From contig CAYVKP010000004.1 in assembly GCA_964452165.1 (NCBI GenBank), positions 5,333 through 69,332 on the forward strand: a stretch of DNA of 64,000 nt, read 5' to 3'. The translations under genes and the position numbers were made by a program. The notes beneath the pieces were generated by a model that was not told where the DNA came from, did no database searches, and worked only from the letters and a program-made list of their open reading frames with translations. How positions within the stretch are numbered: the first letter of the stretch is position 1; each line of letters starts with the position of its first letter. Origin of the DNA: an uncultured Gammaproteobacteria bacterium (GTDB lineage: Bacteria; Patescibacteriota; Microgenomatia; Levybacterales; GWA1-39-11). This document shows, in pieces, positions 7,552-62,056 of the stretch.

Positions 7552-8649
7552 TCAATATTTTATGGTAAATTTTCCATTCGAACTGCTAATAATTCCCGCA
7601 AGTTCCATTCCGGATAATATTACTGAGAGTTGAGAGATTGGAATCTTTGTCTCGCGAATAAGTTCGTCTATTGTTTTTTCTTCACCTTCAAGAGCATCGA
7701 GCACTTTTCGTTCCTCTTTTGTAAGTTTTAAACTTTTAATTTTATCGATTTGTTCGGAATTTGATATTTGAGATTTGAGATTTAACGAGTTCAAAATGTC
7801 TTGAGCATTTTGAACGAGTACGGCTCCTTGCTTTAATAATTTCAATGCACCACGGGATTGTTGGGAGGTAATTGGACCCGGGACGGCAAAAACTGTTTTT
7901 CCTTGACTTATTGCATGCTCTGCCGTGATTAGCGAACCACTCTCTTCTGCTGCTTCCGTGATTAAGACTGCCATTGAGATGCCAGCGACAATTCTATTTC
8001 TTGCCGGAAAAGTTCCGGGGTTAGCAGGCATTCCTAATGGATACTCGGAAACTACCAAACCGCGAGAATCCAGAATCTCCTCATAAAGTCTGTCATTTTC
8101 TCGCGGATAAGGACAGTCTACTCCGCAACCAAGAACTGCAATCGTCTCACCCTTGTTCTCCATTGTAGTCTTGTGGGCAATTGCATCTATGCCCATTGCC
8201 ATTCCTGAAACGATTATGAAACCTGATAGAACAAGTTCGCTTACTAAAGTTTCCGTAACCTGAAATCCGTAAGAAGTTGTCTTTCGCGCCCCAACTACTC
8301 CGATTAGCTTTTTCCCAAGCAACAACTCTTTGTTACCTTTAATATAAAGCCCAATTGGAGGACTATCGATTTGTGAAAGGCGAACCGGATAGTATTTATC
8401 GCCGAAGGGAATAAATTCTACTTTTGCTTTTTTGAGCCGTGCCAAGTAATCTTTAATGTCAAATGTCTTTCTGAATGATTCGAACTTTTCATAATATGCC
8501 TTCCCTACTCCCGCCTCTTTATATCTTTCCTGAGAACTTTCCTGCCATGCTTTTGCCGGTGATCCAAACAAACGAATCAAGTTCTGATAACTTTTTGGTC
8601 CAACACCAGTTGAGTTTGAAAATGCCAGCGCCGCAGCTCTATCATCCAT
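7552..8649 (-). CDS. dprA: DNA processing protein DprA (Smf)
   Basis: LIGVVGARKTTSYG ... SGMAMGIDAIAHKTT ... RNRIVAGISMAVLITEAAEESGSLITAEHA ... and a C-terminal winged-helix tail. Confidence 0.85.
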   Translation of the reverse strand: MDDRAAALAFSNSTGVGPKSYQNLIRLFGSPAKAWQESSQERYKEAGVGKAYYEKFESFRKTFDIKDYLARLKKAKVEFIPFGDKYYPVRLSQIDSPPIGLYIKGNKELLLGKKLIGVVGARKTTSYGFQVTETLVSELVLSGFIIVSGMAMGIDAIAHKTTMENKGETIAVLGCGVDCPYPRENDRLYEEILDSRGLVVSEYPLGMPANPGTFPARNRIVAGISMAVLITEAAEESGSLITAEHAISQGKTVFAVPGPITSQQSRGALKLLKQGAVLVQNAQDILNSLNLKSQISNSEQIDKIKSLKLTKEERKVLDALEGEEKTIDELIRETKIPISQLSVILSGMELAGIISSSNGKFTIKY

Positions 8650-8762
8650 GAAATAAGAATAACATAAGCAGTTTTCTCTTTCATTTTTCTTACCTCATAG
8701 TGCAAGTTGTCTTAAGCAAATCAGCCATAATTGTGGCAGATATAAGAAAGGAGGTGCAAAAT

Positions 8763-8972
8763 ATGGCAACAGAAATAGTACACGAACATGATCATACAGC
8801 AGGAGGAGATAGCTCAGGCGCAGTAGTAGGAATAATCCTACTGGCCATTCTCGTCTTATTCTTGGTTTATGCTTTTGGATCAGGTGCCTTCCGAGGTATT
8901 CTGGGTAATGGTGGGACCAACGTCCAGATTCCTGACAAGGTAAACGTCAACGTTCAAGGACCAGGTAAATAA
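8763..8972 (+). CDS. Small membrane protein (69 aa)
   Basis: AAGGAGG 8 nt upstream of the ATG at 8763; one TM helix (GIILLAILVLFLVYAF). Confidence 0.4.
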   Translation: MATEIVHEHDHTAGGDSSGAVVGIILLAILVLFLVYAFGSGAFRGILGNGGTNVQIPDKVNVNVQGPGK

Positions 8973-9400: not shown

Positions 9401-10549
9401 ATGGTAAGGTTTAAAAAATCAAAAAATCTAAATCCTGTTCTGGGGTGTGTTTTGCTTTTGTTTGTTCTTGTACTCTTGTTCCTATTTCCAAAATTAAAGA
9501 GTGGATTTGTACACTCACCAAGCAGGAATGTTTCAGCTGAATACTCCAACCATAAATTCGCATACACTAAAAGCGGTAAAGTATTTATCTATGATCCGGC
9601 AACTTCCCAAAACACACTAGCGTTTAACAACATCTCCAATGCTTTAGATGTTCAATGGTCTCCTGATGGAAAACTTTTGACCGTAGCAAATGATGCGGTG
9701 TATTTTTACGATCCGCTTTCAAAAACCCAAAAAAGAATTCTTGATAATTTTAAAGGAACTTTATGGGGATGGAAGTCTTCGAAGGAATTTATAACTTTAC
9801 GTGAATTCAATAACAAAGGAGAAATACATGTAATAGGAACAGGTGATGGTCCTCCCGATATGAGTAAAGATAAATACACTGTTGTTTCTTTAGACGGAAA
9901 AACACAGGAGATATCGCTTCAGCAAGAAATTGGTATTGCCCAAAATAAAACAATATTCCCTGATGTACATCACTCATTTAAAGCTATAAAAACTCCCCTA
10001 CCTAGCAATCCAATTCATATCAATCTTTTGGATATAAAGCGCAATACCGAATACCACTTAGACGACACGGTTTCATATATAAAATTATCTCCAGATAACT
10101 CTAGCGTCATTACGCTTGATTCTAGTGGGATGGGTTCGGACGAAATCTGGAAGGTGTGTAAATTTGAAAATATTATTGGAGCAAACAATTGCGAAGAACT
10201 TCCCGCAAGACACCTTACTATCAGACCTAATTACAAATGGATAGACAACCATACCCTAGCGTTTATGAGCCAGGCAGAAAAAAAGGACGAATACACTTTT
10301 AATTCATATGACATACAAACCAAAACGCAAAAAGCCATTGGGAAGCCGTTACATACGGTTTTCCCCGACTCCATAGTTTTTGAAATTGCACCTGATGGAA
10401 AAAACATAGTGTATACCTACGTAGAAACTTATTCTCCCGATGGCCACGAACAGCAGTATTTTATAGCAAAAGTTTCAATTGCGGACGGTGAAGAAACTCT
10501 GCGTATCCCAAATGACCTGACAAGGGTTTCAGATGACTTACCACTTTAA
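9401..10549 (+). CDS. Secreted or anchored beta-propeller (TolB/PD40-like repeats) protein
   Basis: N-terminal TM or signal; repeated WSPDGKLL, LSPDNSSV, IAPDGKNIVYTY, YSPDGHEQ motifs. Confidence 0.5.
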   Translation: MVRFKKSKNLNPVLGCVLLLFVLVLLFLFPKLKSGFVHSPSRNVSAEYSNHKFAYTKSGKVFIYDPATSQNTLAFNNISNALDVQWSPDGKLLTVANDAVYFYDPLSKTQKRILDNFKGTLWGWKSSKEFITLREFNNKGEIHVIGTGDGPPDMSKDKYTVVSLDGKTQEISLQQEIGIAQNKTIFPDVHHSFKAIKTPLPSNPIHINLLDIKRNTEYHLDDTVSYIKLSPDNSSVITLDSSGMGSDEIWKVCKFENIIGANNCEELPARHLTIRPNYKWIDNHTLAFMSQAEKKDEYTFNSYDIQTKTQKAIGKPLHTVFPDSIVFEIAPDGKNIVYTYVETYSPDGHEQQYFIAKVSIADGEETLRIPNDLTRVSDDLPL

Positions 10550-10551
10550 AT

Positions 10552-11709
10552 ATGGAAGAAAATAATCAAAGACCATCGTTAGTTCAAAATCCTTCGATAG
10601 AACAATCTCCTCCTCCTTCTCCTCACACCGAAAAACCAAAACTTAAACTCCCGATTTTGATTGCGGGTGTGGTTGTGGTCTCTATTTTGAGTGTTTACTC
10701 GATAATGCTGCTAGGTAGTAAAAAAGCGGTTGCATGCCCCACTGATGCAAAAGTTTGTCCGGATGGAACTACGGTTGGAAGAATTGGCGCGCATTGCGAA
10801 TTCGGCAAGTGCCCAGTCCCATCAATTTCTCCAGTATCAGCTGATCCAACCGCCAACTGGAAAATCTATTCAAATACCTTGAGCAATTTTTCTCTAAAAT
10901 ACCCAAGGGATTGGGGAGTAGGATATGAATCGGAAGACCTTGTCATGTTACGAAGAGCCGGGGCGCCATTTGTAGAATCACCAATTCAGCTGTGGATTTA
11001 TAAAAATACGGAAGGGCTTGATTTGCTAACGTATCTCAAAACAAAAATATTTCCTGGCCCGCTACCCGTTACTTCCACCGCAGACAAACTTACAAATATC
11101 AAGGTCGGCAGTATGGATGCAGTAAGGGCAGATGGTATTGTGGGCGGAAAAGGTGGGTTTGGTCCCGGAACATTTTTTGGTAATAATAAGGTAGTCGTGG
11201 GAATAGTCCTTGAAGATGCTGCGGGAAATCCGGCAATATTAAACCAAATTATCTCAACCTTTAAATTCACAAATAATAATCAGTTTGGTCCAAGTCCTAC
11301 CGTCACTACAAACACAAAAATCTATTCAAGTCAGTATATGACATTTCGATATCCTCAGCCTTGGAATCCCACTCCTTCACAATCCCTTGGAGGAGCCACT
11401 GCGGAAGCATTAAATCTTGGTATTCCCGGAAACAATGGCGATAATTCGATTGGTTTTTATTCTCCGGATTATTCTACGATACAAATTAATGACGCCGTTT
11501 CCCAAAAACCTATAACTATTGGTGGGAGAAGCGGAATGAAGTATATTCGTAAATCTACACTAAGCAATTCACTGATATATTCGTATGACTATATGACAAC
11601 AGGATATCAAAACACGGGGTCTTTTTCCCTTCACGTAAGCGTCCCCGCTTTAGATACAACTCTTGAAACACAATTAGATAATCTGGTTGCTACAATCGTG
11701 TTTAAATGA
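10552..11709 (+). CDS. MEENNQ/ILSTFKFT family surface protein, paralog 1 (two modules; 4-Cys block)
   Basis: Start MEENNQ, Pro-rich segment, TM helix, the block ACPTDAKVCPDGTTVGRIGAHCEFGKCP, modules PTANWKIYSN..FSLKYPRDW ... QIISTFKFTNN and ...IYSSQYMTFRYPQPW.... Confidence 0.6.
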   Translation: MEENNQRPSLVQNPSIEQSPPPSPHTEKPKLKLPILIAGVVVVSILSVYSIMLLGSKKAVACPTDAKVCPDGTTVGRIGAHCEFGKCPVPSISPVSADPTANWKIYSNTLSNFSLKYPRDWGVGYESEDLVMLRRAGAPFVESPIQLWIYKNTEGLDLLTYLKTKIFPGPLPVTSTADKLTNIKVGSMDAVRADGIVGGKGGFGPGTFFGNNKVVVGIVLEDAAGNPAILNQIISTFKFTNNNQFGPSPTVTTNTKIYSSQYMTFRYPQPWNPTPSQSLGGATAEALNLGIPGNNGDNSIGFYSPDYSTIQINDAVSQKPITIGGRSGMKYIRKSTLSNSLIYSYDYMTTGYQNTGSFSLHVSVPALDTTLETQLDNLVATIVFK

Positions 11710-11712
11710 ACC

Positions 11713-12888
11713 ATGGAAGAAAATAATCAAAACCAAAGCCAGCCGAATCAAGTAACTCCTCCACCTGTTCAGCCGACGGTCGAACAGAATGCTCCTGTCC
11801 CTCCGCCTCTCTCAAAAAAACCAAAACTTAAACTCCTGATTTCAATAGCCGTGGTTTTATTTTTTCTATTTGCTATTGGTAGCGCGTTGGCAGCTTATTT
11901 TTTTGTGCCTCGATGTCCAAACCCTCCAACTCAAAAGGATATATTCGGAGATGTTAGATCCCAGAATTCCATTTGTATTACATGGGGAGATACTACTAAA
12001 ACTGCCAAGAGAAATGGAACCTCTCAAAATCTACGGCCTCAGGTCTCTCACACTCCAACTCCCGATTCCACCGCCAATTGGAAAACATATACAAACGGTC
12101 AGTACGGGTTTTCAATAAAATACCCTGAAACATGGGAGGAAAAACCGGGGCCGTATTTGGATGGGTTTTATGCCCCACCTTCATCCGAATGTCTTCCGCC
12201 TCACGCCTGTGGAGGATCAACTATGGGTTTTAATATCGACGTACGGGATAACCTTTATAAATCCATTCAAGAACACATAAACAAATTCCCCGATATGTAT
12301 AGCCTTACACATTTTGTACCATATAATTCATTCGGCAACAAAGGGTGGATGATAGATAGAAATGGCTTAGGAGCAGGCGCAAATCAGCAAATATTAATTC
12401 CAATTGAGACATCAATAATCAGTGTAACGTGCTCTCTTTGCGATGACAAATTAACTGACCAAATCCTTTCAACCTTCAAAATAATCAATAAAGTATCTAA
12501 TATACAACAGGGGGAAGGCTTTTCTTTCGTACTTCCCTACGGATTTTCTGTCCATCAAAAATCTCCATCTGAAACGTCCTTTATTGGTAAAGGCTATACC
12601 AATCCCACAATTTTTTTAAAAAACCAATCAACCCCATTTATCAAACCTGTGGTTTCCGCAACTCCTGAAAAAGCGGGAGAAATAAGTGGGGTTGAAAAAT
12701 CTACAATAACTGTTGGCGGTAAGAATATAGAAAAATATATCGTCAGCTGCAACGCAGCAGATTGCTATTATGCAAAGGTGTATTTCAATGTTAACGGAAG
12801 ATATTATGAATTTCAAATGGATATTGCTGGAGGAGGCCTTATATTACGACTCGATGACATTATTCACTCTTTGAAATTTACAAATTAA
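11713..12888 (+). CDS. MEENNQ/ILSTFKFT family surface protein, paralog 2
   Basis: MEENNQ, Pro-rich, TM; STANWKTYTNGQYGFSIKYPETW ... QILSTFKIINK ... C-terminal LKFTN. Confidence 0.6.
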   Translation: MEENNQNQSQPNQVTPPPVQPTVEQNAPVPPPLSKKPKLKLLISIAVVLFFLFAIGSALAAYFFVPRCPNPPTQKDIFGDVRSQNSICITWGDTTKTAKRNGTSQNLRPQVSHTPTPDSTANWKTYTNGQYGFSIKYPETWEEKPGPYLDGFYAPPSSECLPPHACGGSTMGFNIDVRDNLYKSIQEHINKFPDMYSLTHFVPYNSFGNKGWMIDRNGLGAGANQQILIPIETSIISVTCSLCDDKLTDQILSTFKIINKVSNIQQGEGFSFVLPYGFSVHQKSPSETSFIGKGYTNPTIFLKNQSTPFIKPVVSATPEKAGEISGVEKSTITVGGKNIEKYIVSCNAADCYYAKVYFNVNGRYYEFQMDIAGGGLILRLDDIIHSLKFTN

Positions 12889-12890
12889 TT

Positions 12891-14108
12891 ATGGAAGAAA
12901 ATAATCAAACACCACCGATTCAAAGTCTACCAGCCGAACAAAACGTTCCAACTGCTTCACCTATTCAAAACGAAATACCGAAATCAAAATTTAGCATTAA
13001 AAAAACTGTGACAATTGTTTTTCTTTTTTTCGTAGGTATTATAATTCTATATATAGGTTTTAATCTGGTTTATTCGGCTTTGGGACTCAGGGGAGATAAT
13101 TACATTCCGCAGCTTAAACCTCTACCTACACAAACGGTATCTCCCACACCGGTCGACCTAACCGCCAACTGGGAAACATACTCTAATTCAGATCTGGGTG
13201 TCACATTTAACTATCCTAAAGGTTATGATATAAAAACAAACAAAGTTGAAGACCCAAAGGATGGTAGCGATGTTTTTTATGCAGGGTTTTTAATACCTAA
13301 AGATAATGCAAGCGTAGTAATAACTAGGGCAAGCCCAAATTTTTTAAGAGAAGTTCCATATAGTAAAACCTCTATCTCAGAGGAAGAATTTTATAACCCC
13401 GCAAATAACTTTTGGTTAAAAGGTAATATAGACAATGGAGCCGAGGGCACAATGTATGAAATACCGCAAATAATAAATGCTGGGGAAAATAAGTTTATAG
13501 TTCAAGCACGTAAGCCAATTAGGCCTTATCAGGGAGTAAAAGGAAATGAATTATACTATAACTATTACCATTGGCTAAGTAGTTCTGATGTTATTACGAT
13601 TGTGCTTTCAACAACTTCAGACAATCCAAAAAACGATGCCGCAAATCAAACTTTTCAACAAATCCTCTCAACCTTCAAATTTACAGAACAAAACCAGGCA
13701 GGCGACACTTCAACCTGGAAAACATTTACCAATAGCTATGCTCATTATTCGTTAAAATACCCTGCAAAAATGAAGCAAAGCTCAAACCAACGCGTAGATT
13801 CTTTTATTGCCGGCTACCAAACAGTCAGAGGCTTAGCAGGAGGACCAAATATGAATATTACATACTGGACAATTGAACAAGCAGCTTCTTTAGCTCTTCC
13901 AATTACCATTCCAACGCCTGGACCAAACAGAATAAAAATTGACGGTGATGATACAAATATATCATTTAGTCAGCTAGCAGGTATAACAATTGGTCCCTTT
14001 AAAAAGGGTGATTTTTATTACCAAATTGACTACTTTGATGATGGTGGTTTTACCTCTGTACCAACTGAACTTGACCAAATCCTCCCAACATTCAAATTCA
14101 CGAATTGA
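12891..14108 (+). CDS. MEENNQ/ILSTFKFT family surface protein, paralog 3 (two modules)
   Basis: MEENNQ, TM; LTANWETYSNSDLGVTFNYPKGY ... QQILSTFKFTEQ; TSTWKTFTNSYAHYSLKYP ... QILPTFKFTN. Confidence 0.6.
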   Translation: MEENNQTPPIQSLPAEQNVPTASPIQNEIPKSKFSIKKTVTIVFLFFVGIIILYIGFNLVYSALGLRGDNYIPQLKPLPTQTVSPTPVDLTANWETYSNSDLGVTFNYPKGYDIKTNKVEDPKDGSDVFYAGFLIPKDNASVVITRASPNFLREVPYSKTSISEEEFYNPANNFWLKGNIDNGAEGTMYEIPQIINAGENKFIVQARKPIRPYQGVKGNELYYNYYHWLSSSDVITIVLSTTSDNPKNDAANQTFQQILSTFKFTEQNQAGDTSTWKTFTNSYAHYSLKYPAKMKQSSNQRVDSFIAGYQTVRGLAGGPNMNITYWTIEQAASLALPITIPTPGPNRIKIDGDDTNISFSQLAGITIGPFKKGDFYYQIDYFDDGGFTSVPTELDQILPTFKFTN

Positions 14109-14110
14109 CT

Positions 14111-14872
14111 ATGGAAGAAAATAATCAAACAAAAAAAATAACTTCACAGGCCGAAGATTTGCATATGGAAGGAAATGCAGCTATTCCTGAAAAACCTAAG
14201 TCAAAATTTAAGCTCTCAATTATTATTGGTACCGTTTTGTTTTTAATACTACTCGTTACGACTTATACAACTTATGCATTCATGAAGGCACAAAAACAAA
14301 CTGCTTGCGCCACTGATGCAAAGGTCTGTCCTGATGGAGCGACCGTTGGAAGAATCGGCGCACATTGCGAATTCGGTAAGTGCCCCGTTCCCTCAATCTC
14401 CCCGACTCCCGCCCCCGTAGAAAATATAGATAATTTATTCTCAGTAACTCTACCTGATGGTTGGACAAAAACAATAGATTATGATCCATATGCTGGAAAG
14501 GACCATAATGTTTATTTTTTATCTCCCGATTTTAAACAGGGTGGACAAGATCAATCAACTGGAACACAAATATCTGTTCACGTAAAGGTGGGAACACCGA
14601 ATGAAGATTTAAAAACTGAAGCGAATAAGCTAGCTACATTTGATCCAAAAGGCTGCACGAGTACAGTGAAAGAGATAACTATCGGAGGCGTGAGAGGATA
14701 CGAAGGCATATGCGATAGAGTTGCGGGTAGATTTAATCCAGACTATAGCAGATACTATTTTTTTAAAAATGGTCAATATGTTTGGTCCATAATGACCTTT
14801 GCATACAAAGCTAATTCGGTATATTTTAATCAAATAGATCAAATCCTCTCAACCTTTAAATTCACGAAGTAA
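14111..14872 (+). CDS. MEENNQ/ILSTFKFT family surface protein, paralog 4 (4-Cys block)
   Basis: The real start is probably the ATG at 14111 (MEENNQ); the track start at 14105 is TTG. TM helix, the block ACATDAKVCPDGATVGRIGAHCEFGKCP, C-terminal QILSTFKFTK. Confidence 0.6.
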   Translation: MEENNQTKKITSQAEDLHMEGNAAIPEKPKSKFKLSIIIGTVLFLILLVTTYTTYAFMKAQKQTACATDAKVCPDGATVGRIGAHCEFGKCPVPSISPTPAPVENIDNLFSVTLPDGWTKTIDYDPYAGKDHNVYFLSPDFKQGGQDQSTGTQISVHVKVGTPNEDLKTEANKLATFDPKGCTSTVKEITIGGVRGYEGICDRVAGRFNPDYSRYYFFKNGQYVWSIMTFAYKANSVYFNQIDQILSTFKFTK

Positions 14873-14873
14873 T

Positions 14874-15905
14874 ATGGAAGAAAATAATTTAAGTCAGCCG
14901 AACCCTGCACCATCTGCTCAAAATCCTCCGGGGCAGAAAGATACCAACGACACAACCAATAAGGTTCTGAGAAGTATACTAGCGATTTGTTGCTTCGCGC
15001 TCGGCTCGCTTCAGTTGGTTATTCCTGCAGTTTTGGCGCTGTTGGTTTTACCTCAATTAATCAAACTTTATCACAACCTAAATCTTAGTATGCCCCCTTC
15101 AGCTTATATAGGTTATGTAATTTGCGCGGTTATCTTTATAGCCGGAATTGTAAATATTTACCTTGGAATAAAAGTGCTTAAGGGCTCGAGATATACCATA
15201 CAAGCGATTATATTTTTAATTGTTTCCTTTTTCTTGATGGGAGCACTTTCTGCCGGAGTTGTCCTTTCAGTTATAAATCCTATTTATAAATTGGTTGGGA
15301 ACATAGATAATTCAAGTGAAAATACCGCTATCTCCTCCACTCCAACACCTGACCCAACCACCAATTGGAAAACGTACTCTAACTCCGAATATAATTTCAG
15401 CTTTAAATATCCACCCATGTACGACTTGAGAATGGAAGGTAAAGCGCCTTATATATACAAAGACAGAGTACTTACAGACGCTGGAGGGTTTGCGGGAGGA
15501 AGTGTTCTAAAAAAGGGGGTGGTAATATTATTTGACGGTTATACAAACAAGGATATTTCGGAAAATGCATTAAAATCTGAATTCGGAACAGAAATATTGA
15601 TACGATCTAAAAGCTTAGGAGGGGAAAATGGTACGCTTGTCTCGATCCCTTCAAATCAATATGAACAAAGATTATTCATTCCTTATGGGAACAATAAAAC
15701 ACTTGCAATAACTCTTTCCTTTGGATTTGAAACTCCCAATGAAGAAAGAAAACTTTATGCAAAAGAGTTTGAACAAATTCTCTCGACCTTCAAATTCACC
15801 GATTCGAACCTGTCTCCTTCCCCAACTTGCACTCCTCGCCCTGCGTGTCTTGATGCTACTCCACGCTGTATGATACCGGAACTTGAAAGTTACTGTAAGA
15901 AATAA
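14874..15905 (+). CDS. MEENNQ/ILSTFKFT family surface protein, paralog 5 (polytopic N-terminus, Cys-rich C-terminal tail)
   Basis: MEENNLSQ, about 4 TM helices, PTTNWKTYSNSEYNFSFKYPPMY ... QILSTFKFTD, plus the tail SPTCTPRPACLDATPRCMIPELESYCKK. Confidence 0.6.
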   Translation: MEENNLSQPNPAPSAQNPPGQKDTNDTTNKVLRSILAICCFALGSLQLVIPAVLALLVLPQLIKLYHNLNLSMPPSAYIGYVICAVIFIAGIVNIYLGIKVLKGSRYTIQAIIFLIVSFFLMGALSAGVVLSVINPIYKLVGNIDNSSENTAISSTPTPDPTTNWKTYSNSEYNFSFKYPPMYDLRMEGKAPYIYKDRVLTDAGGFAGGSVLKKGVVILFDGYTNKDISENALKSEFGTEILIRSKSLGGENGTLVSIPSNQYEQRLFIPYGNNKTLAITLSFGFETPNEERKLYAKEFEQILSTFKFTDSNLSPSPTCTPRPACLDATPRCMIPELESYCKK

Positions 15906-16090: not shown

Positions 16091-17860
16091 TCACTTGTGT
16101 TCGAAGTAATCGGTTAATATTTTCTTGGCGATTGGGCCTGCAATACTTGACCCTTCTCCCCCATTCTCAACGAGAACGGTGACTGCAATTTCCGGTTTAT
16201 CAAATGGCGCGAATACCGTAATCCAAGCATCTGGATTTTTGTCTCCACCAACTTCAGCGGTTCCGGTTTTACATGCAACTTTGACCCGCGTCATCTGTGC
16301 AGAATCAGACGAGTCTTTAAAATAATCTTTATTGTCGATTGGTAAGTTTGTATTTTTTACTTTAAAACCGAAAAACGGCCAAGCAACTCCACCGGAATCA
16401 CAAGCATCTTCCATCCCTTGGCGTACCAAATTCATATTGGGGCTTTTTATAAAATCCTTCTTCAAGACTTTTCTCTGCCCCTGTAAAAGATGCGGCTGAT
16501 AGACGGTGCCACCATTTGCAAAAACGTCGGTAAACATATTTACCTGTAAGGGCGTTGTAAGTAAATACCCTTGCCCAATTCCGTAGTTGTAAGTATCTCC
16601 CAAATACCATTGCTCGCCAATTGTTTTCATTTTCCACTCAACGGTCGGTACAGTCCCCGTAGCCTCTCCCGGAAGATCGATATTGAATTTAGAACCAAGA
16701 CCAAAAGTTCTGGCCCAGGAAGAAACGTTATCAACCCCAGTTGCCTCGGCGGTTTTGTAGAAGAAAATATCGTTTGAGCGTTTGATTGCACCGACTATAT
16801 TAAGACTTCCTTCAGTCCTTCCGTATTGCAGGAAATACCAGTTACCAAAAGAGAATGTTCCGACTTTAAGAATTCCGGTGTCTTCAATTTGCGTGTCCGG
16901 TTTTATTGCGCCGTGTTCTAGAGCTGCTGTTGCTGCAATCAGTTTGAATGTTGAACCAGGAGGATAGACACCCGAGATTGCTCTATCTAAGAGCGGGCGG
17001 CGGTCAGAATCTGTCAAAATACTTTCTACTGTTTTGTAATCACCCTCAAGGTCTTGCGAGTCTTTTGCGGACGTCACAAAAACGTTAGGGTCAAAAGTTG
17101 GTTGTGAATACATTGCAAGAATTGATCCGTCCCTGGGGTCTGATACAACGACTGCTCCGTTTTGATTTTTCTCAAACGCATGAGATGCGGAGAGTTGAAT
17201 ATCCAGATCAAGCGTTGTCCGAAGACTTTGGCCCGTTATTGGCTCCTGTTGCCCTAGCTCTCGCGTATACTGCCCTCTTGAATCTACCTCAAATAACTTT
17301 TTCCCATTATTTCCGTGCAAAAGTTTTTCGTATTGCCGCTCAAGTCCAATTTGACCCACGGAATCATTGATGGAGTAGTCAGAAAATTCCGGCATGTTGA
17401 CTTGATCCGGAGAGATCTGACCTACATATCCCAGAACGTGAGCGAATGCGCTTTTGTAAAGATAGGTCCTTTGGGTTGCACTCACTACATCTTTTCCTTG
17501 AGAGATGAGAGACAGAGCTTGTTTCTCATCAATTTTTTTCAAATGTCCGTGATCGCTGACTTGAAAAGTTGCGCTGTTTGCTACTAAGGGTCTGCCACGT
17601 CTATCGTAGACTATTCCGCGTGGCGCCTGTACCACTTCAGTCCTGGTCCTATTATTGTCAGAAAGTCCTTTGTAATAAGAACCACGCAAGATCTGTACAT
17701 AAAAAAGTCTGACAAAGATAATTGACAGTAGAAGAATCAAAATAAAAAGAGGTAGCAGGTAGGCCGATCCCTGTGGCAATGAATAACCGAAATTTCTACC
17801 CCTACCCTTTCTATTTGTTGCGGAGACTGAGTCAAAAAAAGCGGGTCCGATTTTTACCAT
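16091..17860 (-). CDS. mrdA: Penicillin-binding protein 2 (peptidoglycan D,D-transpeptidase)
   Basis: S-x-x-K motif (PPGSTFKLIAATAALEHG), S-x-N and KTG (CKTGTAE) motifs; N-terminal TM; follows mreC-mreD. Confidence 0.85.
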   Translation of the reverse strand: MVKIGPAFFDSVSATNRKGRGRNFGYSLPQGSAYLLPLFILILLLSIIFVRLFYVQILRGSYYKGLSDNNRTRTEVVQAPRGIVYDRRGRPLVANSATFQVSDHGHLKKIDEKQALSLISQGKDVVSATQRTYLYKSAFAHVLGYVGQISPDQVNMPEFSDYSINDSVGQIGLERQYEKLLHGNNGKKLFEVDSRGQYTRELGQQEPITGQSLRTTLDLDIQLSASHAFEKNQNGAVVVSDPRDGSILAMYSQPTFDPNVFVTSAKDSQDLEGDYKTVESILTDSDRRPLLDRAISGVYPPGSTFKLIAATAALEHGAIKPDTQIEDTGILKVGTFSFGNWYFLQYGRTEGSLNIVGAIKRSNDIFFYKTAEATGVDNVSSWARTFGLGSKFNIDLPGEATGTVPTVEWKMKTIGEQWYLGDTYNYGIGQGYLLTTPLQVNMFTDVFANGGTVYQPHLLQGQRKVLKKDFIKSPNMNLVRQGMEDACDSGGVAWPFFGFKVKNTNLPIDNKDYFKDSSDSAQMTRVKVACKTGTAEVGGDKNPDAWITVFAPFDKPEIAVTVLVENGGEGSSIAGPIAKKILTDYFEHK

Positions 17861-18261
17861 AAAGGCTTCTTAAAAACGTAAGAAAATATTCCAGTAGCAA
17901 CCGCAAAGACCAAAATATAGATTACTAAGTTATCGTTGTAGGAAAAAGCTCTTGCAAAAGCGTAAGAAGCAAAGAATAAAACTAAAATAATTGGCCCTAT
18001 GCTTTTAAAATTTACCATCTTCTTTATGAATTCGATTGCGGCAAATGATCCCAGAATCACAACCGGAGTGATTCCGATCGGTGACACCTTGAGAGCATCA
18101 AGCAAGAGCCCAGCAAAAAAACATGCTATCACAACCACACCTTGCGGATAAAGAATATATGCAAGTAAAGAAAGAGCGAAGACAAGCGGAAATGGCAAAA
18201 TTGTTGTTTCAAGTATTAAAGCACCTAAAATCAGCGCAAAAATTAAATTCCTGGTGTTCAT
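17854..18261 (-). CDS. mreD: Rod shape-determining protein MreD (small polytopic membrane protein)
   Basis: 135 aa, 4-5 TM helices, located between mreC and the PBP2 gene; the call is based on position and topology. Confidence 0.5.
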   Translation of the reverse strand: MNTRNLIFALILGALILETTILPFPLVFALSLLAYILYPQGVVVIACFFAGLLLDALKVSPIGITPVVILGSFAAIEFIKKMVNFKSIGPIILVLFFASYAFARAFSYNDNLVIYILVFAVATGIFSYVFKKPLW

Positions 18262-19034
18262 TTTGAAGAAAGGATAACGAAAACTGTTGCAAGGTGGGCA
18301 AATGGAATACTGCTTTCAACTTTTGCGGTTTGGAAAGCGAGAGCATCATTTCTGTTAACTTTTGAGATTTTTCCGATCAGCAAATCCGCTGGGACTCCAA
18401 GACCATGCTCGTCAATTTGTCCTGCGGTCTTAACCCCTTCTCCTTCAATAATTTTGTCTTTTATAGCCACGTGGTCAAAAAGAATAAAATCATCTTGACC
18501 GTGAACAATGCCGGACGCATTATTTTCAACACTCACCGCGACCGTTGAAAAACCTGGTCCCGTTAGTAACTCCACCCGTGAATAAGCACTCTTAACGGAA
18601 GTTATCTTTCCAACCAAATTATCTCCGAAGATCACGGCCATTCCTTTTTTCACTCCGTCTTTTTCTCCCAGAGCAACTATAAGATACGAGGGCGATGGAC
18701 CGCTCCCCTGCGAACCGACAACCCGACCGGGTAGCAAATTGTAGCCTTGGGTTTGTGACGTCTCAAACTGACTACGCAATGCATCGTTGTCTTTTTTCAA
18801 ATTTTCATAGTTCACAAGCTTTTTCAGAATCCTTGAGTTATCATTTTTAAGTTTTTTTATCTCAGGACTATCTCCTCCCATTTTAGTTTTTATATCGTAA
18901 AGTGCGGATTTAGGCGGAGAGAATACGTTCTGGACGAGCGAGGAGATACCTTTAACCGGGGGGAAAGTGTTGTTTAGAAGAATCAAAAGGGCAATGACAA
19001 AAAAAACTGCGAGTACTAGATATGATTTTCGCAT
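18258..19034 (-). CDS. mreC: Rod shape-determining protein MreC
   Basis: N-terminal TM, coiled-coil (LKKDNDALRSQFE), C-terminal Gly-rich beta domain (VVGSQGSGPSPSYLIVALGEKDGVKKGMAVIFGDNLVGKITSV). Confidence 0.7.
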   Translation of the reverse strand: MRKSYLVLAVFFVIALLILLNNTFPPVKGISSLVQNVFSPPKSALYDIKTKMGGDSPEIKKLKNDNSRILKKLVNYENLKKDNDALRSQFETSQTQGYNLLPGRVVGSQGSGPSPSYLIVALGEKDGVKKGMAVIFGDNLVGKITSVKSAYSRVELLTGPGFSTVAVSVENNASGIVHGQDDFILFDHVAIKDKIIEGEGVKTAGQIDEHGLGVPADLLIGKISKVNRNDALAFQTAKVESSIPFAHLATVFVILSSK

Positions 19035-23901: not shown

Positions 23902-24393
23902 TTAGTTAAATTGAGCTGTTGATATAATTTCTTCAAGATGATTAACCCCTTCTCTTACAGCCCGTACACTAAGCATTCTCGTGGAATCTAGCTTAATAAT
24001 ATAATCGTTGTATATAGTCTTCAGAGCTGGCTTCCCATTTATTGTCATTATTTTGCCAGCACCATTAGGGTAATGCGTTTTAATTAATTCATCGAGTCCT
24101 CGGTCATCCATAGAGGCCTCTACCATAAGTACTTCGTTTCCTGCATAATCCCCGTAGGAATGGGCAGCCTTTGTTCCAACCAGGAAAAAGCTTATTCCAT
24201 TATCATCCGGGGCTTCAGCTGTTTTTTCATAATACCAGTTTTTGGGATATCGAAAACTAAAACCGTAGGTGCTATTTTTATATTCCTTTGTATCCCGCTG
24301 TATTTGTGTGTTTCTATGATAGTTCGGGGAAATAACAAAACCAACGATTGACAGAAACATAATAATTATGAGGGGAGCGATTTTTTTGAGCAT
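23902..24393 (-). CDS. Anchored extracytoplasmic protein, single-module member of the YxFSxKYP...ILSTxKF family
   Basis: N-terminal TM; KNSTYGFSFRYPKNWYYE ... C-terminal HLEEIISTAQFN resembles the module of the tandem array. Confidence 0.45.
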   Translation of the reverse strand: MLKKIAPLIIIMFLSIVGFVISPNYHRNTQIQRDTKEYKNSTYGFSFRYPKNWYYEKTAEAPDDNGISFFLVGTKAAHSYGDYAGNEVLMVEASMDDRGLDELIKTHYPNGAGKIMTINGKPALKTIYNDYIIKLDSTRMLSVRAVREGVNHLEEIISTAQFN

Positions 24394-46172: not shown

Positions 46173-46772
46173 ATGAATACGTCTAAGTTTATTTTAGGTC
46201 TGCTCACGGTTTTTATATTCCTGCTTCTTGTCGTAGGCTTCTATTCGGTTATAAGCAAAAAGAGCTCGATAAAAACTGTCACGACAAAAGCCACAGAGAC
46301 AAGTATTGTACTCGGAGAATTTAAAACATACAAAGATCCTGCCGGATCCTTCACTCTTTCTTATCCTAAGGATTATGAAATTGAATATTTAGATGAAGGA
46401 CGACAAACCCAATTCAGTAAAATTGGCCGCGGTGCAAGAATCAATGACCCATACAACGGCGTCTCTATGGTGATTGAGCCCGTTGGACTAAGCGGCTTGA
46501 GTTTGGCGAACTGGACTGATGCGTACGTTGGAAACAGAATCAGTGATGGGACTTTTGAGATGATTGACCCTAAAAAGAAAGTTGAGATTAATGAAAATTA
46601 CGGATTCACTTTCACCATCAGAAATGAACAAATATCAAGAGTTTATGTCTTGCAGAAAAGTGAAAAATCGCAGTACGCCCTTGTTGTAACAGCCACAGTT
46701 TACGATCCTCTCAATTTTGGTTTCCAAAAACAGGTAGATCAAGTCCTCTCCTCGCTCGCCATTTTAAAATAA
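46173..46772 (+). CDS. Anchored extracytoplasmic protein, single-module member of the YxFSxKYP...ILSTxKF family
   Basis: N-terminal TM; FKTYKDPAGSFTLSYPKDYEIE ... C-terminal QVDQVLSSLAILK. Confidence 0.45.
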   Translation: MNTSKFILGLLTVFIFLLLVVGFYSVISKKSSIKTVTTKATETSIVLGEFKTYKDPAGSFTLSYPKDYEIEYLDEGRQTQFSKIGRGARINDPYNGVSMVIEPVGLSGLSLANWTDAYVGNRISDGTFEMIDPKKKVEINENYGFTFTIRNEQISRVYVLQKSEKSQYALVVTATVYDPLNFGFQKQVDQVLSSLAILK

Positions 46773-53269: not shown

Positions 53270-54013
53270 TTGTTTGTTATAAAATGCCATATGGAAGAAA
53301 AAACCGGCGAAACAAAAGTCGAGACCGTTGAACACAAAACTGAACCCCCAATGAATAAAAAAGATCCTTTTTCGATTGTAGGGAAAGTTGCGGTCCTCTT
53401 GATAGTTGCTGCTCTTCTTGTTGGCGGCGGACTTTATCTTGGCAAAAGCATGAATAAAAATTCAAATTCGAACAATTCCGTAATGCCAAGCCCAACAGTA
53501 GAACAAGCAATGGAGGAATCGCCAACCGCCTCTCCCACCCCTTCAACAAGCTCGGGGCAGGCGCAAATGAAAACTGTTGTTGCCGGGCCTGCAAAAGGGA
53601 CAAGTTTTGGAGCTTACTCAATCGATATTCCAAGCGGTTGGACTGACAAACACGAAGTAACTGACATAACAGACAAGCTCACTATCACAAAAGGGGCGTA
53701 CGAGCTTTCAATTTACCAGGCGCCAATTGGAGGCGGAGGATGCCGCTACCCTGGACAATCTGATGCTCCAATGTCACAAAGATTTACGGAGTTTAAGGAA
53801 ATAGATGGAACAACTGGAAACATGATAAGAAGCTGGAACAAAACTGGAAATCCTGCGGGACAGATTGTCTACACGATTTGTCAGGGCGGAATCGGAGACA
53901 TATCCAGCTCCCCAACCTCATTTGGTGCTATCTCTGCAAAGTCTCCTGACCCGGCGGACGCGGCAACAATGAAAGATATTGATTCTATGATCTCCTCCAT
54001 CACCACAAAGTAG
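53270..54013 (+). CDS. Anchored extracytoplasmic protein (247 aa)
   Basis: TM, Ser/Pro linker, beta-rich C-terminal domain. Confidence 0.45.
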   Translation: MFVIKCHMEEKTGETKVETVEHKTEPPMNKKDPFSIVGKVAVLLIVAALLVGGGLYLGKSMNKNSNSNNSVMPSPTVEQAMEESPTASPTPSTSSGQAQMKTVVAGPAKGTSFGAYSIDIPSGWTDKHEVTDITDKLTITKGAYELSIYQAPIGGGGCRYPGQSDAPMSQRFTEFKEIDGTTGNMIRSWNKTGNPAGQIVYTICQGGIGDISSSPTSFGAISAKSPDPADAATMKDIDSMISSITTK

Positions 54014-54360: not shown

Positions 54361-54526
54361 TGATATAATTTTCGTCTAGTTTCCCGGAGGTGACACAACC
54401 TCGGCATTTGCTTGCCGAAAAAGTGTCCTCTGAGACACTTTTTTCCTTCCAAGACGGAAGAGTCGACGAAGCAATTTGCAAGCTTTTGTTCGAAGCCAAG
54501 TCAAAAGAAGGTCGCACCTGAACAAT
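54361..54526 (+). promoter_or_regulatory. Regulatory cassette copy A: extended -10 (TGaTATAAT, 54361-54369), hairpin GTGTC-ctctga-GACAC plus T6 (54424-54445), conserved tail ...GGTCGCACCTGAACAA
   Basis: Read directly; homologous to copy B at 61849-62018. Confidence 0.55.
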
Positions 54527-54597
54527 CCGGGAATTAACATTTTTTAAAAAACTTTAAACAATTATTAGCTCGCACGATACTGAAAGGAGGCGGTCCC

Positions 54598-55107
54598 ATG
54601 ACGACAATTCTACTTCTGGTACTTGCGGGCATAGCAATCATCGTGATTGCTCGTTTCGCAGTATTACGCAAGAATAAATCCAAGCCTCAACCCATTGTCC
54701 ACGAGGTGGACGATCGTAACTGGGAGGAAGATATCGAAAACTTTATGGATACTGCTCTCAAAAGCAGCACGCTTGTTACGCATCTTCATGCTCAGTGGGA
54801 ATTCGCCCACAGACGGATGATAGCAGGGGGTGTATCCAAAAAGTTCGATCTCAAGCTCGGCGAAAAACCTGAGTGGATGACTTGGCCCGACATGCTCGTG
54901 GTCCAAGAAGGAGATCGATTTGACGTCAACGCATACTTCAAGCGCGCTAGGATCGGCGATGAATTAATCGTCGTTAACCGACGTGTCAGAATATTCGCGC
55001 TTCGCCGCCGTAAACAATACGGCTTTCGCGATGACGAGATAACTGTCCGCCGTCCCTACGCGGGAGATTTTCCTTACTTACTTGGTCCCTACAAGGCTAA
55101 GGATTAG
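54598..55107 (+). CDS. Island ORF 1: membrane-anchored hypothetical protein (169 aa)
   Basis: AGGAGG 7 nt upstream; N-terminal TM; GC-rich. Confidence 0.5.
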   Translation: MTTILLLVLAGIAIIVIARFAVLRKNKSKPQPIVHEVDDRNWEEDIENFMDTALKSSTLVTHLHAQWEFAHRRMIAGGVSKKFDLKLGEKPEWMTWPDMLVVQEGDRFDVNAYFKRARIGDELIVVNRRVRIFALRRRKQYGFRDDEITVRRPYAGDFPYLLGPYKAKD

Positions 55108-55140
55108 ACCGCGAAAGCGGATCCTCACGAAAGGAGGAAC

Positions 55141-55476
55141 ATGGCTTATAAGCCCAGATACGGATTGTCGCTAGAGGCTGAAGTTTGGGCATTTGCCATG
55201 CTTGTCATCCTCTCGATCGTGTTGCTCTGTGCGGTTATTTTCACTCTACTCGCCTATCAGAATCGCATCTCCGAAGAACGGGCCCTGCCTGTGCTTCGTC
55301 AGATCGCGAAAACCGAACGCGTGTATGTGACAAGCCACACCAACAACATACCGATCACCGGGCATCCGGGCGACGTTACATTCGAACTCACTGTAGACGG
55401 AAAGCAAGCTCGTGGCCACTGCACTAAGTACGACAAGGGCAGAAAGGTTACATGCACGCTTACCTACTACGAGTGA
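55141..55476 (+). CDS. Island ORF 2: membrane-anchored hypothetical protein (111 aa)
   Basis: AGGAGG RBS; one TM. Confidence 0.5.
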   Translation: MAYKPRYGLSLEAEVWAFAMLVILSIVLLCAVIFTLLAYQNRISEERALPVLRQIAKTERVYVTSHTNNIPITGHPGDVTFELTVDGKQARGHCTKYDKGRKVTCTLTYYE

Positions 55477-55512
55477 CTAGCAAGCGCATCAAGCGCGGGA
55501 GGAAACAGACAC

Positions 55513-55752
55513 ATGAATCGCATTTCCGATCCCGATAAGAAGTTTCCGGCACTCGCGGCCCAAAAGAAAAAGCCGCTGCTGGACGCCATCAAGGCCAACT
55601 TCACTCAGGATGAACTCGAGAGAGTTCTGAAAGACAGAAGCCGAACGATCGAAGTAACTATTCTGCTTGGAAACAAGCTTGGTAGTACCGCGACCGCAAC
55701 GGTGAGTCTTGACAGAGAAGACTTAGAGCGTAGAATAGCTCGAAAGTCATAG
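55513..55752 (+). CDS. Island ORF 3: hypothetical protein (79 aa)
   Basis: GGGAGGA RBS. Confidence 0.45.
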   Translation: MNRISDPDKKFPALAAQKKKPLLDAIKANFTQDELERVLKDRSRTIEVTILLGNKLGSTATATVSLDREDLERRIARKS

Positions 55753-55764
55753 CGCGGAGGAAAC

Positions 55765-56223
55765 ATGGAAACAAAGACGATTTCGTTCCAGCTGACCCAC
55801 GGCACGGCCGAGGTCTGCTACTACGTCAACGGCTACGGTGTTTACTTCACTGTGGTGACCAAGGGAGCTTCCCCTGTCATCCATGCGAAGAGCATCATCG
55901 AAGCCATCAAGGAGGACAACGTCGAGATTCAGCTCTGGCCCCGTCACTACACGTTCTACTGCCTGCAAACGCGGCGGTCGAACGAATATCGCGAGAAAGG
56001 CTATTTCTGTCTCGACGAGCTCTCCACGGAATATCACGGCGCGTTCCCGTTCCTAACGTGGAAACCAATCGCGATGTCCGAGGGAGAGAAACGCTTACGT
56101 AGCGAGGACACCATTCGTAAGGTGAGACCGCTTCGCAAGCACGTGAGAGAGGCATTCGCCAACTTCCTGGAGGAAGAAGAGAACGAGCCTCTACCCAAAC
56201 GGGATTGGCAACCACCGCACTAA
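55765..56223 (+). CDS. Island ORF 4: hypothetical protein (152 aa)
   Basis: GGAGGA RBS. Confidence 0.5.
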   Translation: METKTISFQLTHGTAEVCYYVNGYGVYFTVVTKGASPVIHAKSIIEAIKEDNVEIQLWPRHYTFYCLQTRRSNEYREKGYFCLDELSTEYHGAFPFLTWKPIAMSEGEKRLRSEDTIRKVRPLRKHVREAFANFLEEEENEPLPKRDWQPPH

Positions 56224-56247
56224 ACGCGGAAGAAAAGGAGCATCGCC

Positions 56248-56412
56248 ATGGAACCCCGCGAAAAAGAGAACAACCGACCGTTGCACAAGAAGATTTCGAT
56301 CTTCAACCTGATTTGTGCAATCGTGTCGATTACGCTCGCAGCATACCTGCTGATTCCGCGGATATTTTCTCGTCCCGAAAGCGACGAAGATAAACCTCCC
56401 GGTGGTAAATAA
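56248..56412 (+). CDS. Island micro-ORF: 54-aa single-TM peptide
   Basis: AAGGAG RBS; ISIFNLICAIVSITLAAYLLIP TM; below the 60-aa track cutoff. Confidence 0.35.
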   Translation: MEPREKENNRPLHKKISIFNLICAIVSITLAAYLLIPRIFSRPESDEDKPPGGK

Positions 56413-56480
56413 GCCCACCGAAATCAACCCATCAACTCTCGCTCGCAAGCGGGATACAAACACAACGAGGAGTAACAACG

Positions 56481-56837
56481 ATGAACTTCTTCGACCCCAG
56501 GGACAGCAGGACAGCACGATTCCGGGACTCGGAGGACGACGGTCAAAGCCCGCAGGCCCGACCTCGCACCCCGCGATCCGGAAACGCGATCAAGGAGCCG
56601 ACTCGCGCCGAAAAGATTCGGGCGATACTCGTGTTCTACACGAGAGGCGAACTCCAGACCATGTTCGAACGACTCCAAGCAAGAGGAAGTCGCACTAAAA
56701 GCGTCGAGATTGCGCTGGTACCATGGATTGGAACTGATCCGGGTGGCGGTGTGAACTCGCGGAAGGTCTCACTATCCCGAAAGGACTTGGAGCGAATCCT
56801 GAACGGCCAATGGATGGCAGGTTCAGTCCGAGGTTAG
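56481..56837 (+). CDS. Island ORF: basic hypothetical protein (118 aa)
   Basis: GAGGAG RBS. Confidence 0.45.
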   Translation: MNFFDPRDSRTARFRDSEDDGQSPQARPRTPRSGNAIKEPTRAEKIRAILVFYTRGELQTMFERLQARGSRTKSVEIALVPWIGTDPGGGVNSRKVSLSRKDLERILNGQWMAGSVRG

Positions 56838-56874
56838 GATACAAGACGGCTTTACCCCGCCGAAGGAGGCAATC

Positions 56875-57105
56875 ATGCCAGAAGACCGAGCAAAGGCTTG
56901 GATTCCAAGCGCAGAACTCGCTGGGGAAAACCTCGATGAGTATCTGAGCAAAGTCCCTAAAGGATCGGAAGTCCAATGCTGGAGCGCTGCTCAAATCACC
57001 CGAGTCTACACTTCTCGTCATTACAGGGTTCGCGACTTGCGAAGTCACATACCCGACAAGAAGGAGCTTGAGGAGCACGCCAAGCTGAAGGACAAAGCAT
57101 CATGA
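56875..57105 (+). CDS. Island ORF: hypothetical protein (76 aa)
   Basis: AAGGAGG RBS. Confidence 0.4.
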   Translation: MPEDRAKAWIPSAELAGENLDEYLSKVPKGSEVQCWSAAQITRVYTSRHYRVRDLRSHIPDKKELEEHAKLKDKAS

Positions 57106-57254
57106 AGACCGCAGGCCAAAAGGCGCTTACCGGTATCAAAATCCTGGTGGAAGTTGCGGTAGCAGTCTCGGCGGCACTAGTCGTCTTGGCTCTACTCGAT
57201 TCCATCATGGATGACGAGGCCGAAGAACGCCAAACCGGCACCTACGGAAAATAA
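57102..57254 (+). CDS. Island micro-ORF: 50-aa single-TM peptide (ATGA-coupled)
   Basis: Start overlaps the upstream stop (ATGA); ILVEVAVAVSAALVVLALL TM. Confidence 0.3.
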   Translation: MKTAGQKALTGIKILVEVAVAVSAALVVLALLDSIMDDEAEERQTGTYGK

Positions 57255-57291
57255 CCAGCGCTAGTGCGCTAGGAAAAGAAAGAGGACAACC

Positions 57292-57702
57292 ATGCACGTT
57301 GAAATCACGGCCACTGTCGCTCAGTGGTTCTACGACAATTATCGCGAAAAAGCGCTGTTCGACAACCTACGGGAAGCATGGCAACAAGCTGTCACTGACA
57401 AGCTGATTCATTCCAAAGACGAGTACGAGGTAGCAACCACCTTCCTACCCGCCAGCCTAAGCGCCGGTCGGCTTCTATCACTCAAGATAGACTGCTACGG
57501 AGTGTGGCCGTTCATGGCGGGCACCGGATTCATGGAGCACCTTGGAAGAGTTACCTCGGACGCGGTCCGAAGATACCATACGGGCTCCAACAGCCTGAAG
57601 ATGAGGGTGATAGTCGAGTCTCACCGTGAGGCAACAGTCGCACCCAACATCCCGCTCGAACTCGCTGAACCCGTCACACAGGGCAATCCTGAGAAAGGTT
57701 AA
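57292..57702 (+). CDS. Island ORF: hypothetical protein (136 aa), paralog of 58122..58538
   Basis: AAGAGGA RBS; MHVEITATV... is similar to MYVKITAEV.... Confidence 0.5.
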   Translation: MHVEITATVAQWFYDNYREKALFDNLREAWQQAVTDKLIHSKDEYEVATTFLPASLSAGRLLSLKIDCYGVWPFMAGTGFMEHLGRVTSDAVRRYHTGSNSLKMRVIVESHREATVAPNIPLELAEPVTQGNPEKG

Positions 57703-57754
57703 ATCGCGGTGCGCGGTTACCTAACGATCCCGCCTAGTTAGAAGGAGAATTCTC

Positions 57755-58108: not shown

Positions 58109-58121
58109 AGAAGGAGACAGA

Positions 58122-58538: not shown

Positions 58539-58574
58539 CCGGCCCCTTGGCCGAGAAACCGAAAGGTAACGAAC

Positions 58575-59444: not shown

Positions 59445-59481
59445 CAAGCTGCCCTGACTTACGTCGGAGAAGGATAAAGAG

Positions 59482-60258: not shown

Positions 60259-60268
60259 GGAGAACGAC

Positions 60269-60997: not shown

Positions 60998-61054
60998 TAG
61001 AAATCTGAGAGGTCGAAGTTCGACACTCCAGTGAAGTTAACAAGGAGAACACGG

Positions 61055-62018: not shown

Positions 62019-62056
62019 AAGGAACTTATACAAATTCATGGAAGGACGGTACCCTC

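Follow-up and report, generated by a model that had tools for sequence, protein, structure and literature searches.

Five consecutive genes in a 64,000-nucleotide (nt) stretch of contig CAYVKP010000004.1 (hereafter the window) form a tandem array, G1 to G5, of paralogous membrane-anchored proteins that are divergent members of the Pfam family PsbP_2 (PF18933). The array is a genuine, non-random feature, and the reading we favour, with a probability of roughly 0.55, is that it provides a turnover-prone set of tethered, non-catalytic PsbP-fold binding modules for external partners. The genes and their parts are as follows, the start of G4 being set at the ATG at 14111, which we preferred over a TTG at 14105.

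G1, 10552-11709, + strand, 385 amino acids (aa): MEENNQ tail, transmembrane (TM) helix, four-Cys linker (10731-10832), module a (10837-11289) and module b (11290-11706).
G2, 11713-12888, + strand, 391 aa: MEENNQ tail, TM helix, module a (12058-12501) and a divergent module b (12502-12885).
G3, 12891-14108, + strand, 405 aa: MEENNQ tail, TM helix, module a (13149-13697) and module b (13698-14105).
G4, 14111-14872, + strand, 253 aa: MEENNQ tail, TM helix, four-Cys linker (14302-14403) and one module (14396-14869).
G5, 14874-15905, + strand, 343 aa: MEENNL tail, three TM helices, one module (15345-15812) and a four-Cys C-terminal tail (15813-15902).

The genes run head to tail with intergenic gaps of 3, 2, 2 and 1 nt. 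The 15-mer ATGGAAGAAAATAAT opens all five and is found nowhere else in the window (five exact occurrences against 0.05 expected, with none of 100 shuffles reaching five), and every repeat of at least 50 nt in the window lies inside the array. The gene junction within arrays (..TTYAAATTYACN-stop-ATGGAAGAAAAYAAY..) is more uniform than it is between species. Scans for promoters and terminators in the window were uninformative, because matches were no more frequent than in shuffled sequence. The sequence of G4 is identical to that of database protein P0032.

Each protein begins with a 30-40 aa tail rich in Pro, Gln and Asn and then a Lys-rich patch, followed by the membrane-spanning part, which hydropathy gives as one TM helix each in G1-G4 and three in G5. 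Inspection of the sequences places the positive residues mainly N-terminal of the TM helix, and because of this Lys-rich flank and of the Cys-rich segments that follow the helix a type II (N-in, C-out) topology with a short disordered cytoplasmic tail is predicted. The ectodomain would then comprise one or two Mog1/PsbP modules borne on a Pro/Thr-rich or Cys-rich stalk. The array has eight modules in total, each about 130-180 aa long, two apiece in G1-G3 and one apiece in G4 and G5, and they can be aligned end to end at a mutual identity of only 15-34%, with conserved blocks at the start (T-x-N-W-K-T-Y...F-S-x-K-Y-P) and at the end (Q-I-L-S-T-F-K-F-T). An earlier reading of the window (the original prediction) had described paralogous membrane-anchored proteins with a repeated-module ectodomain, and the five genes, their TM helices and the eight modules bear this out. 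Its MEENNQ start and single TM helix hold for G1-G4 but not for G5, and its near-invariant terminal ILSTFKFT needs more amendment: G1 ends in LVATIVFK, with QIISTFKFT internal, G2 has the degenerate IIHSLKFTN and G3 has QILPTFKFTN, while in G5 another 31 aa, four of them Cys, come after the motif.

The assignment to PsbP_2 is direct for one member and indirect for the others. At 28.1 bits G2 clears the gathering cut-off (27), whereas G1 (23.9 bits) and G5 (20.8 bits) fall below it and G3 and G4 gave no PsbP_2 match in the Pfam scan. G3 has weak matches over the N-terminal hairpin only, to PsbP PF01789 (17.7 bits, cut-off 23.5) and NCBIfam PSII_PsbP (20.3, cut-off 60). None of the five belongs to PsbP proper (PF01789, with its photosynthetic context), and no photosystem gene was seen among the annotated window neighbours (dprA, pbp2, mreC and a glycosyltransferase). 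Relatives of the array proteins match PsbP_2 in 23 of 30 close cases (best E = 4.4e-18) and in 95 of the 99 representatives that were the longest among the top 150 (best E = 2.1e-63). A profile built from 45 modules, run against the PDB, matched CyanoP (2xb3) over residues 9-162 of 165 (E = 0.007), aligning KTYtnseYGFsFkYPsnW with QAYVDSYDGYEFLYPRGW and FdqILSTF with FKTIVSSF.

Structure prediction leads to the same fold. The AlphaFold2 model of the G5 module has a predicted local distance difference score (pLDDT) of 86.5 and a predicted template modelling score (pTM) of 0.81, and its structural-comparison values are 11.4 for TplEi/Tli4, an immunity protein of the type VI secretion system (T6SS), 11.3 for BT_1490, 10.7 for CyanoP, 10.1 for LpqN, 9.9 for Tsi3 (also T6SS immunity), 9.4 for Mog1, 8.5-9.2 for PsbP, 8.7 for Apa, 8.6 for MTC28 and 7.4 for DcrB; PNSL1 is also among the proteins of this fold. 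A full-length model of G1 consists of a disordered tail (1-32), the TM helix (35-55), a small Cys-rich beta mini-domain (62-90) and two modules, each a beta-sheet closing with a C-terminal helix, that agree in the order of their strands and helices, and Foldseek returned PsbP for it. Because the Pfam and profile matches agree with the models and their structural comparison, the module is assigned to the Mog1/PsbP fold, a predicted alpha-beta-alpha sandwich, and what had been no more than a guess at a PsbP-like fold is thereby upheld by PsbP_2 matches, model, structural comparison and CyanoP alignment alike.

The two sequence anchors are the core of this fold, namely the beta1-beta2 hairpin and the C-terminal helix and strand, with the region between them free to vary. 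In the 45-sequence alignment the near-invariant positions are T5, W8, Y11 and P23 at the hairpin end and L146, S147, T148, F149, K150 and F151 at the C-terminal end, and there is no conserved catalytic motif. The conserved motifs thus mark the fold and are not functional sites, and they are not peculiar to the array, as both belong to the core of the PsbP superfamily and are common to thousands of proteins. Since the characterised proteins of this fold are, without exception, binders or adaptors, the modules would be non-catalytic binding domains, anchored at the outer face of the cytoplasmic membrane. To our knowledge the PsbP/Mog1 fold in other bacteria serves in non-catalytic binding only. 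The original prediction had allowed that the module might turn out to be an enzyme family in an invariant array; instead, the fold is non-enzymatic and the locus differs from one relative to another and also among the strains of a sister species.

By analogy, the array proteins would work like other membrane-tethered PsbP-fold adaptors, from which they differ in anchoring, copy number and conservation. CyanoP, the solved PsbP_2 relative (2xb3, 2lnj), is a lipoprotein with one domain and serves photosystem II, whereas the array organisms are non-photosynthetic, their proteins are anchored by an N-terminal TM helix that a Pro/Gln-rich cytoplasmic tail precedes, and their modules are repeated once or twice (up to six times in relatives) and encoded in variable tandem arrays. 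Mycobacterial LpqN and DcrB of Enterobacteria are single-copy, conserved lipobox lipoproteins partnered with MmpL3/11 and with the lipoprotein maturation pathway; the window proteins, in contrast, are multi-copy and fast-evolving, and inspection found no lipobox (L-x-x-C) at the end of the TM helix in G1-G5, where the helix is in any case preceded by the long tail. They fall below the Pfam thresholds for DcrB and Lpp-LpqN and are not members of either family, a DcrB match being found in 1 of 99 relatives. Apa (fibronectin-binding) and MTC28 of M. tuberculosis are Pro-rich antigens secreted via a cleaved signal peptide and encoded by single genes, unlike the TM-anchored array proteins, with which they have no detectable sequence relation.

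The family reaches far beyond the window. An exhaustive HMMER search of 1.84 billion representatives gave 11,361 representative clusters (50% identity) at E <= 1e-3 and 1,166 at E <= 1e-10, with one to six matched stretches per protein. Named matches and genome records are overwhelmingly Patescibacteria, spanning Davies-, Levy-, Woese-, Gottesman-, Shapiro-, Roizman- and Blackburnbacteria, Berkelbacteria, Doudnabacteria, Saccharibacteria, several Parcubacteria groups and WWE3, and the small episymbiont-like genome that had been proposed for the window agrees with its Patescibacteria/Microgenomates-like context. The architecture is likewise widespread: an N-terminal TM helix is present in 202 of 206 relatives, the first two residues are ME or MD in 100 of the 206, P, Q, N and E abound in the tails, and in most the sequence closes with TFKFT and then N, K or Q. 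Family genes are often clustered, with up to six per 20 kb in 80 genome loci, in which the longest same-strand run is one gene at 50 loci, two at 19 and three at 10. A run of five thus ranks high within a common pattern but is not unique, and the view that five paralogs represent a large investment was overstated. The family is already catalogued in Pfam, so that the array is a local, lineage-specific tandem expansion and not a new kind of system. In the literature searched, nothing links PsbP or PF18933 to the candidate phyla radiation (CPR)/Patescibacteria and no function is described for PsbP_2. A phage origin was rejected, no relative having been found in IMG/VR viral contigs.

Two further family genes outside the array were recovered from the window by hmmsearch with the module profile:

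23902-24393, - strand, 163 aa: single module, ending EEIISTAQFN.
46173-46772, + strand, 199 aa: single module, ending VDQVLSSLAILK.

A third open reading frame (53270-54013, + strand), missed by the module profile, has an internal MEEK start, a TM helix and a Ser/Pro/Thr-rich linker and ends DIDSMISSITTK; its product may be a very divergent relative with the same architecture.

The array occupies a defined chromosomal slot, bordered as follows, the gene upstream of G1 being included.

dprA, 7552-8649, - strand: left border (Pfam DNA_processg_A, E = 8.8e-75, and synteny).
Upstream gene, 9401-10549, + strand: 382 aa, N-terminal TM helix and a beta-propeller-like ectodomain, not a family member.
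pbp2-mreD-mreC, 16091-19034, - strand: right border, convergent with G5 (Pfam Transpeptidase, PBP_dimer and MreC, and synteny).

The order mreC-mreD-pbp2-[slot]-dprA is conserved across 72 PBP2-anchored metagenome loci and the genome loci, and what changes is the content of the slot. Relatives whose PBP2 is 40-52% identical to that of the window mostly have no family gene, pbp2 and dprA being directly adjacent (13 loci). At 57-67% identity one family gene is present, convergent with pbp2. A Levybacteria population (loci L037, L094 and L095) has four and the window five. In all, a family gene lies directly beside pbp2 in 18 of the 72 loci. The nearest relative, locus L084, has PBP2 66%, DprA 64%, MreC 43% and MreD 41% identical to those of the window, against about 33% for the best family match. 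Its single slot gene combines a MEENNQ-type tail, TM helix, Cys linker, one module and a C-terminal Cys tail, features that are divided in the window between G1 and G4 (linker) and G5 (Cys tail). Because of this division the array is consistent with duplication in place followed by divergence, the L084-type gene being the likely ancestral form. No 1:1 orthologues exist between the window and L037 arrays.

Two kinds of Cys-rich segment recur in different species. The 34-aa linker common to G1 and G4 (C-x6-C-P-D-G-x12-C-x4-C-P; 102 nt, 84% nt identity) sits after the TM helix and before the first module, has the fuller pattern C-x6-C-P-D-G-x2-V-G-R-x-G-x2-C-E-F-x2-C-P, and is kept across species (also at L037 13987-15183 and L084 4398-5333). 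It is modelled as small beta-hairpins (pLDDT about 76-83) and has no Pfam match. Recent gene conversion between G1 and G4 was judged an unlikely source of the likeness, as at 84% nt identity and with a near-identical peptide there are many apparently synonymous differences by inspection (no formal dS was calculated); the likeness is instead put down to conservation of the peptide. A second four-Cys motif, T-C-x-P-R-P-x-C-L-D-A-x-P-x-C-(M/L)-x-P-E-x4-C, follows the last module in the G5 C-terminus, L084, L152 and the first family gene of L037, and reaches 63% identity between distant relatives against about 30% for the modules.

Turnover at the slot extends to near-identical strains. Seven contigs of the sister species (L086-L092) have identical mreC, mreD, pbp2 and dprA, and L091 and L088 show no mismatch over 10.85 kb to the end of pbp2, yet their slot alleles differ in domain make-up: 504 aa with three TM helices, a Cys linker and two modules in L091, against 275 aa with one TM helix, a Cys linker and one module. 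The shared part of the two alleles is 86% identical in nt sequence, and the sequence upstream of the gene is homologous again at 90%. Over the shared ectodomain, the sole usable allele pair, synonymous divergence (dS) is 0.53, nonsynonymous divergence (dN) 0.107 and dN/dS 0.20, and we therefore conclude that the slot alleles are old, are under purifying selection and are exchanged or sorted as blocks. A dN/dS of 0.20 gives no support for excess amino-acid substitution or positive selection in the slot gene. The diversifying selection put forward in the original prediction is thus not sustained, the five paralogs themselves being too diverged for the test (15-35% aa identity, with synonymous sites saturated). 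In the Levybacteria population four of six single-nucleotide polymorphisms over 15.3 kb lie inside family genes, three of these four nonsynonymous, which is suggestive only.

No variant of the window's own array was found in the data searched, both Logan contigs being 100% identical to the window. In clusters at 90% identity G1, G2, G4 and G5 are each the sole member, and P0069, the sole co-member with G3 (cluster P0068/P0069), was rejected as a variant since it is an unrelated 55-aa TARA Oceans fragment, which also serves as the representative of that cluster, and a clustering artefact. The two Logan contigs, both of which carry G5 (SRR9179560 and SRR9179563), stop at about 16619-16625, inside the PBP2 gene, which may be an assembly break caused by population variation or coverage.

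Taken together with the fold, these observations suggest how the array might operate. Each paralog would display its own distinct binding surface, and the conserved gene junctions (..ILSTFKFT-stop-ATGGAAGAAAATAAT..) and module junctions would offer homology for unequal recombination, by which genes and modules would be gained or lost. Because of this pattern of turnover an accessory role towards external partners is favoured: the set would most likely contact the host cell surface or host-derived macromolecules and not take part in a housekeeping reaction, and it is in this sense that we infer a host-interaction role for the array, as had been proposed. Several points weigh against this. The topology is a prediction, and the fold does not of itself imply an external partner, as it is also used on own-envelope complexes (CyanoP, PsbP, LpqN, DcrB) and in immunity proteins (Tli4, Tsi3). 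A family gene is kept beside pbp2 in relatives down to about 57% PBP2 identity, which could reflect a link with cell-wall synthesis instead. The dN/dS of 0.20 carries no codon-level sign of an arms race, and the databases searched hold no close relative of this genome.

The most serious of the other explanations, although we regard it as unlikely, is that the proteins are envelope-assembly adaptors whose modules dock on the cell's own membrane machines, possibly the PBP2/MreC/MreD elongasome, and aid their assembly or regulation. CyanoP, PsbP, PNSL1, LpqN and DcrB, which have the fold in common with the modules, are all membrane-tethered or membrane-docked extracytoplasmic adaptors, and the pbp2-adjacent family gene in 18 of the 72 loci, its retention at 57-67% PBP2 identity and the purifying selection on the sister-species alleles would all suit such a role. 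However, the more distant relatives dispense with a family gene between pbp2 and dprA altogether, and where one is present it is convergent with pbp2 and so not co-transcribed with it. Copy number (0, 1, 4 or 5) and domain make-up vary even with an identical flank, the window and L037 arrays are without orthologous pairs, and the neighbours of family genes elsewhere are heterogeneous. Convergence, variable copy number and domains, absence of orthologues and mixed neighbours are not what the fixed partner of a conserved machine would show.

Less probable still, and in our view quite improbable, is an orphan immunity or inhibitor array, in which the modules would neutralise exogenous wall- or membrane-degrading enzymes in the manner of the T6SS immunity proteins Tli4/TplEi (5h7y), Tsi3 (4luq) and PA3488 (7wdk), with different paralogs covering different toxins. 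One relative, P0021, is of interest here, as it carries a chagasin-type peptidase inhibitor I42 domain C-terminal of a PsbP-like module; this fusion is the clearest among few extra-domain matches in about 130 relatives scanned, the others being four single marginal matches. The immunity proteins have the fold alone in common with the array modules, and G1-G5 match no Pfam immunity family (e.g. Tli4_C). No adjacent effector or T6SS is present in the array context, where the neighbours are the beta-propeller protein, PBP2 and DprA, and the 25 families most frequent in 149 neighbours of family genes include no hydrolase or lipase.

Capture of lipids or other hydrophobic ligands, with modules acting like LpqN or START-type carriers to take host lipids or lysolipids, is very doubtful. 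Patescibacteria have no lipid synthesis and no known uptake route (PMC11665869), a gap that such carriers would fill. The modules nevertheless have no conserved set of ligand-binding residues, conservation being confined to fold-core positions; a role in taking up a few common lipids is hard to square with their extreme divergence and with gains and losses at strain level, and no transporter is among the recurrent neighbours.

Programmed hypervariation, by a diversity-generating retroelement (DGR) or by cassette-based antigenic variation, is scarcely credible even though Patescibacteria are rich in DGRs and the array has conserved ends and variable middles, because the window holds no template/variable repeat pair (reverse transcriptase genes were not scanned for), the repeats of at least 50 nt are 53-102 nt conserved segments of 60-84% identity with no inverted repeats, the paralogs differ throughout and not in a confined variable region, and the dS of the sister-species alleles indicates old divergence and not ongoing mutagenesis.

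A broader extension of the external-partner reading can be offered tentatively: PsbP_2 might be the main variable surface-recognition repertoire of Patescibacteria, reshuffled at gene and module junctions, with strain-specific sets deciding which hosts or host molecules (possibly lipids) are used, and the array would then be one expanded locus of it. Host recognition by Patescibacteria is largely unknown and few of their surface components are characterised, and interest in the array would rise if the family were the host-recognition repertoire of these epibionts. Short of that, the analysis gives a defined fold (PsbP/Mog1) to a very abundant group of hypothetical membrane proteins and documents turnover in copy number and domain architecture at a fixed chromosomal slot, between near-identical strains as well as between species, so that the family is a concrete candidate for binding, transposon sequencing (Tn-seq) and population-genomic tests.

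The surroundings of family genes reveal no constant associate. The 149 immediate neighbours in the 80 genome loci are heterogeneous, the commonest Pfam families being PIN (6), Fic (5), transketolase domains (4), AAA ATPases (4), AbiEii (3) and HEPN (2), with no conserved partner gene. In the window the gene at 9401-10549, which has weak beta-propeller, PD40 and TolB matches only, stops 2 nt before the start of G1 and is probably in the same operon as the array, and it has no homologue beside family genes in 152 other loci; a conserved operon partner was therefore rejected. An anti-phage defence system was likewise rejected, as neither G1-G5 nor the upstream gene matched a PADLOC defence model at E <= 0.01.

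The slot and its borders hold other small features. Beside dprA a + strand gene (8700-8972) encodes a small His-rich protein with a single TM helix (..HEHDHTAGGDSSGAVVGIILLAILVLFLVY..), and a similar peptide, MDNHSYHGHSSGSEMGFLLGGMLLAIVLFLLFY, is found at the equivalent place upstream of the family gene in the sister species (L088). Between pbp2 and the family gene, contigs L086-L092 carry a small + strand coiled-coil-like gene (e.g. L088 11768-12262) made of 7-aa (21-nt) DVSDLKK/DVSGLKV repeats, whose number varies among contigs that are identical in the flanking genes; the spacing from pbp2 to the family gene ranges from 375 to 552 nt. A variable number tandem repeat thus lies beside the variable slot. 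L088 and L091 also have a second divergent patch at positions 1-913, with 85% identity over about 470 nt and 25 clustered mismatches at 712-913, and its small open reading frames are unrelated to the family.

At the far end of the window, positions 54500-64000 have a G+C content of 0.53-0.56 against about 0.40 in the rest, and the + strand is strongly skewed towards A over T. Neither rRNA nor a tandem repeat was found there, and its small + strand open reading frames have no family matches, except for one at 58575-59444 that matches a PHROG of unknown function and whose N-terminus resembles the GAPDH NAD-binding motif. This segment could be foreign DNA, a prophage or an assembly chimera.

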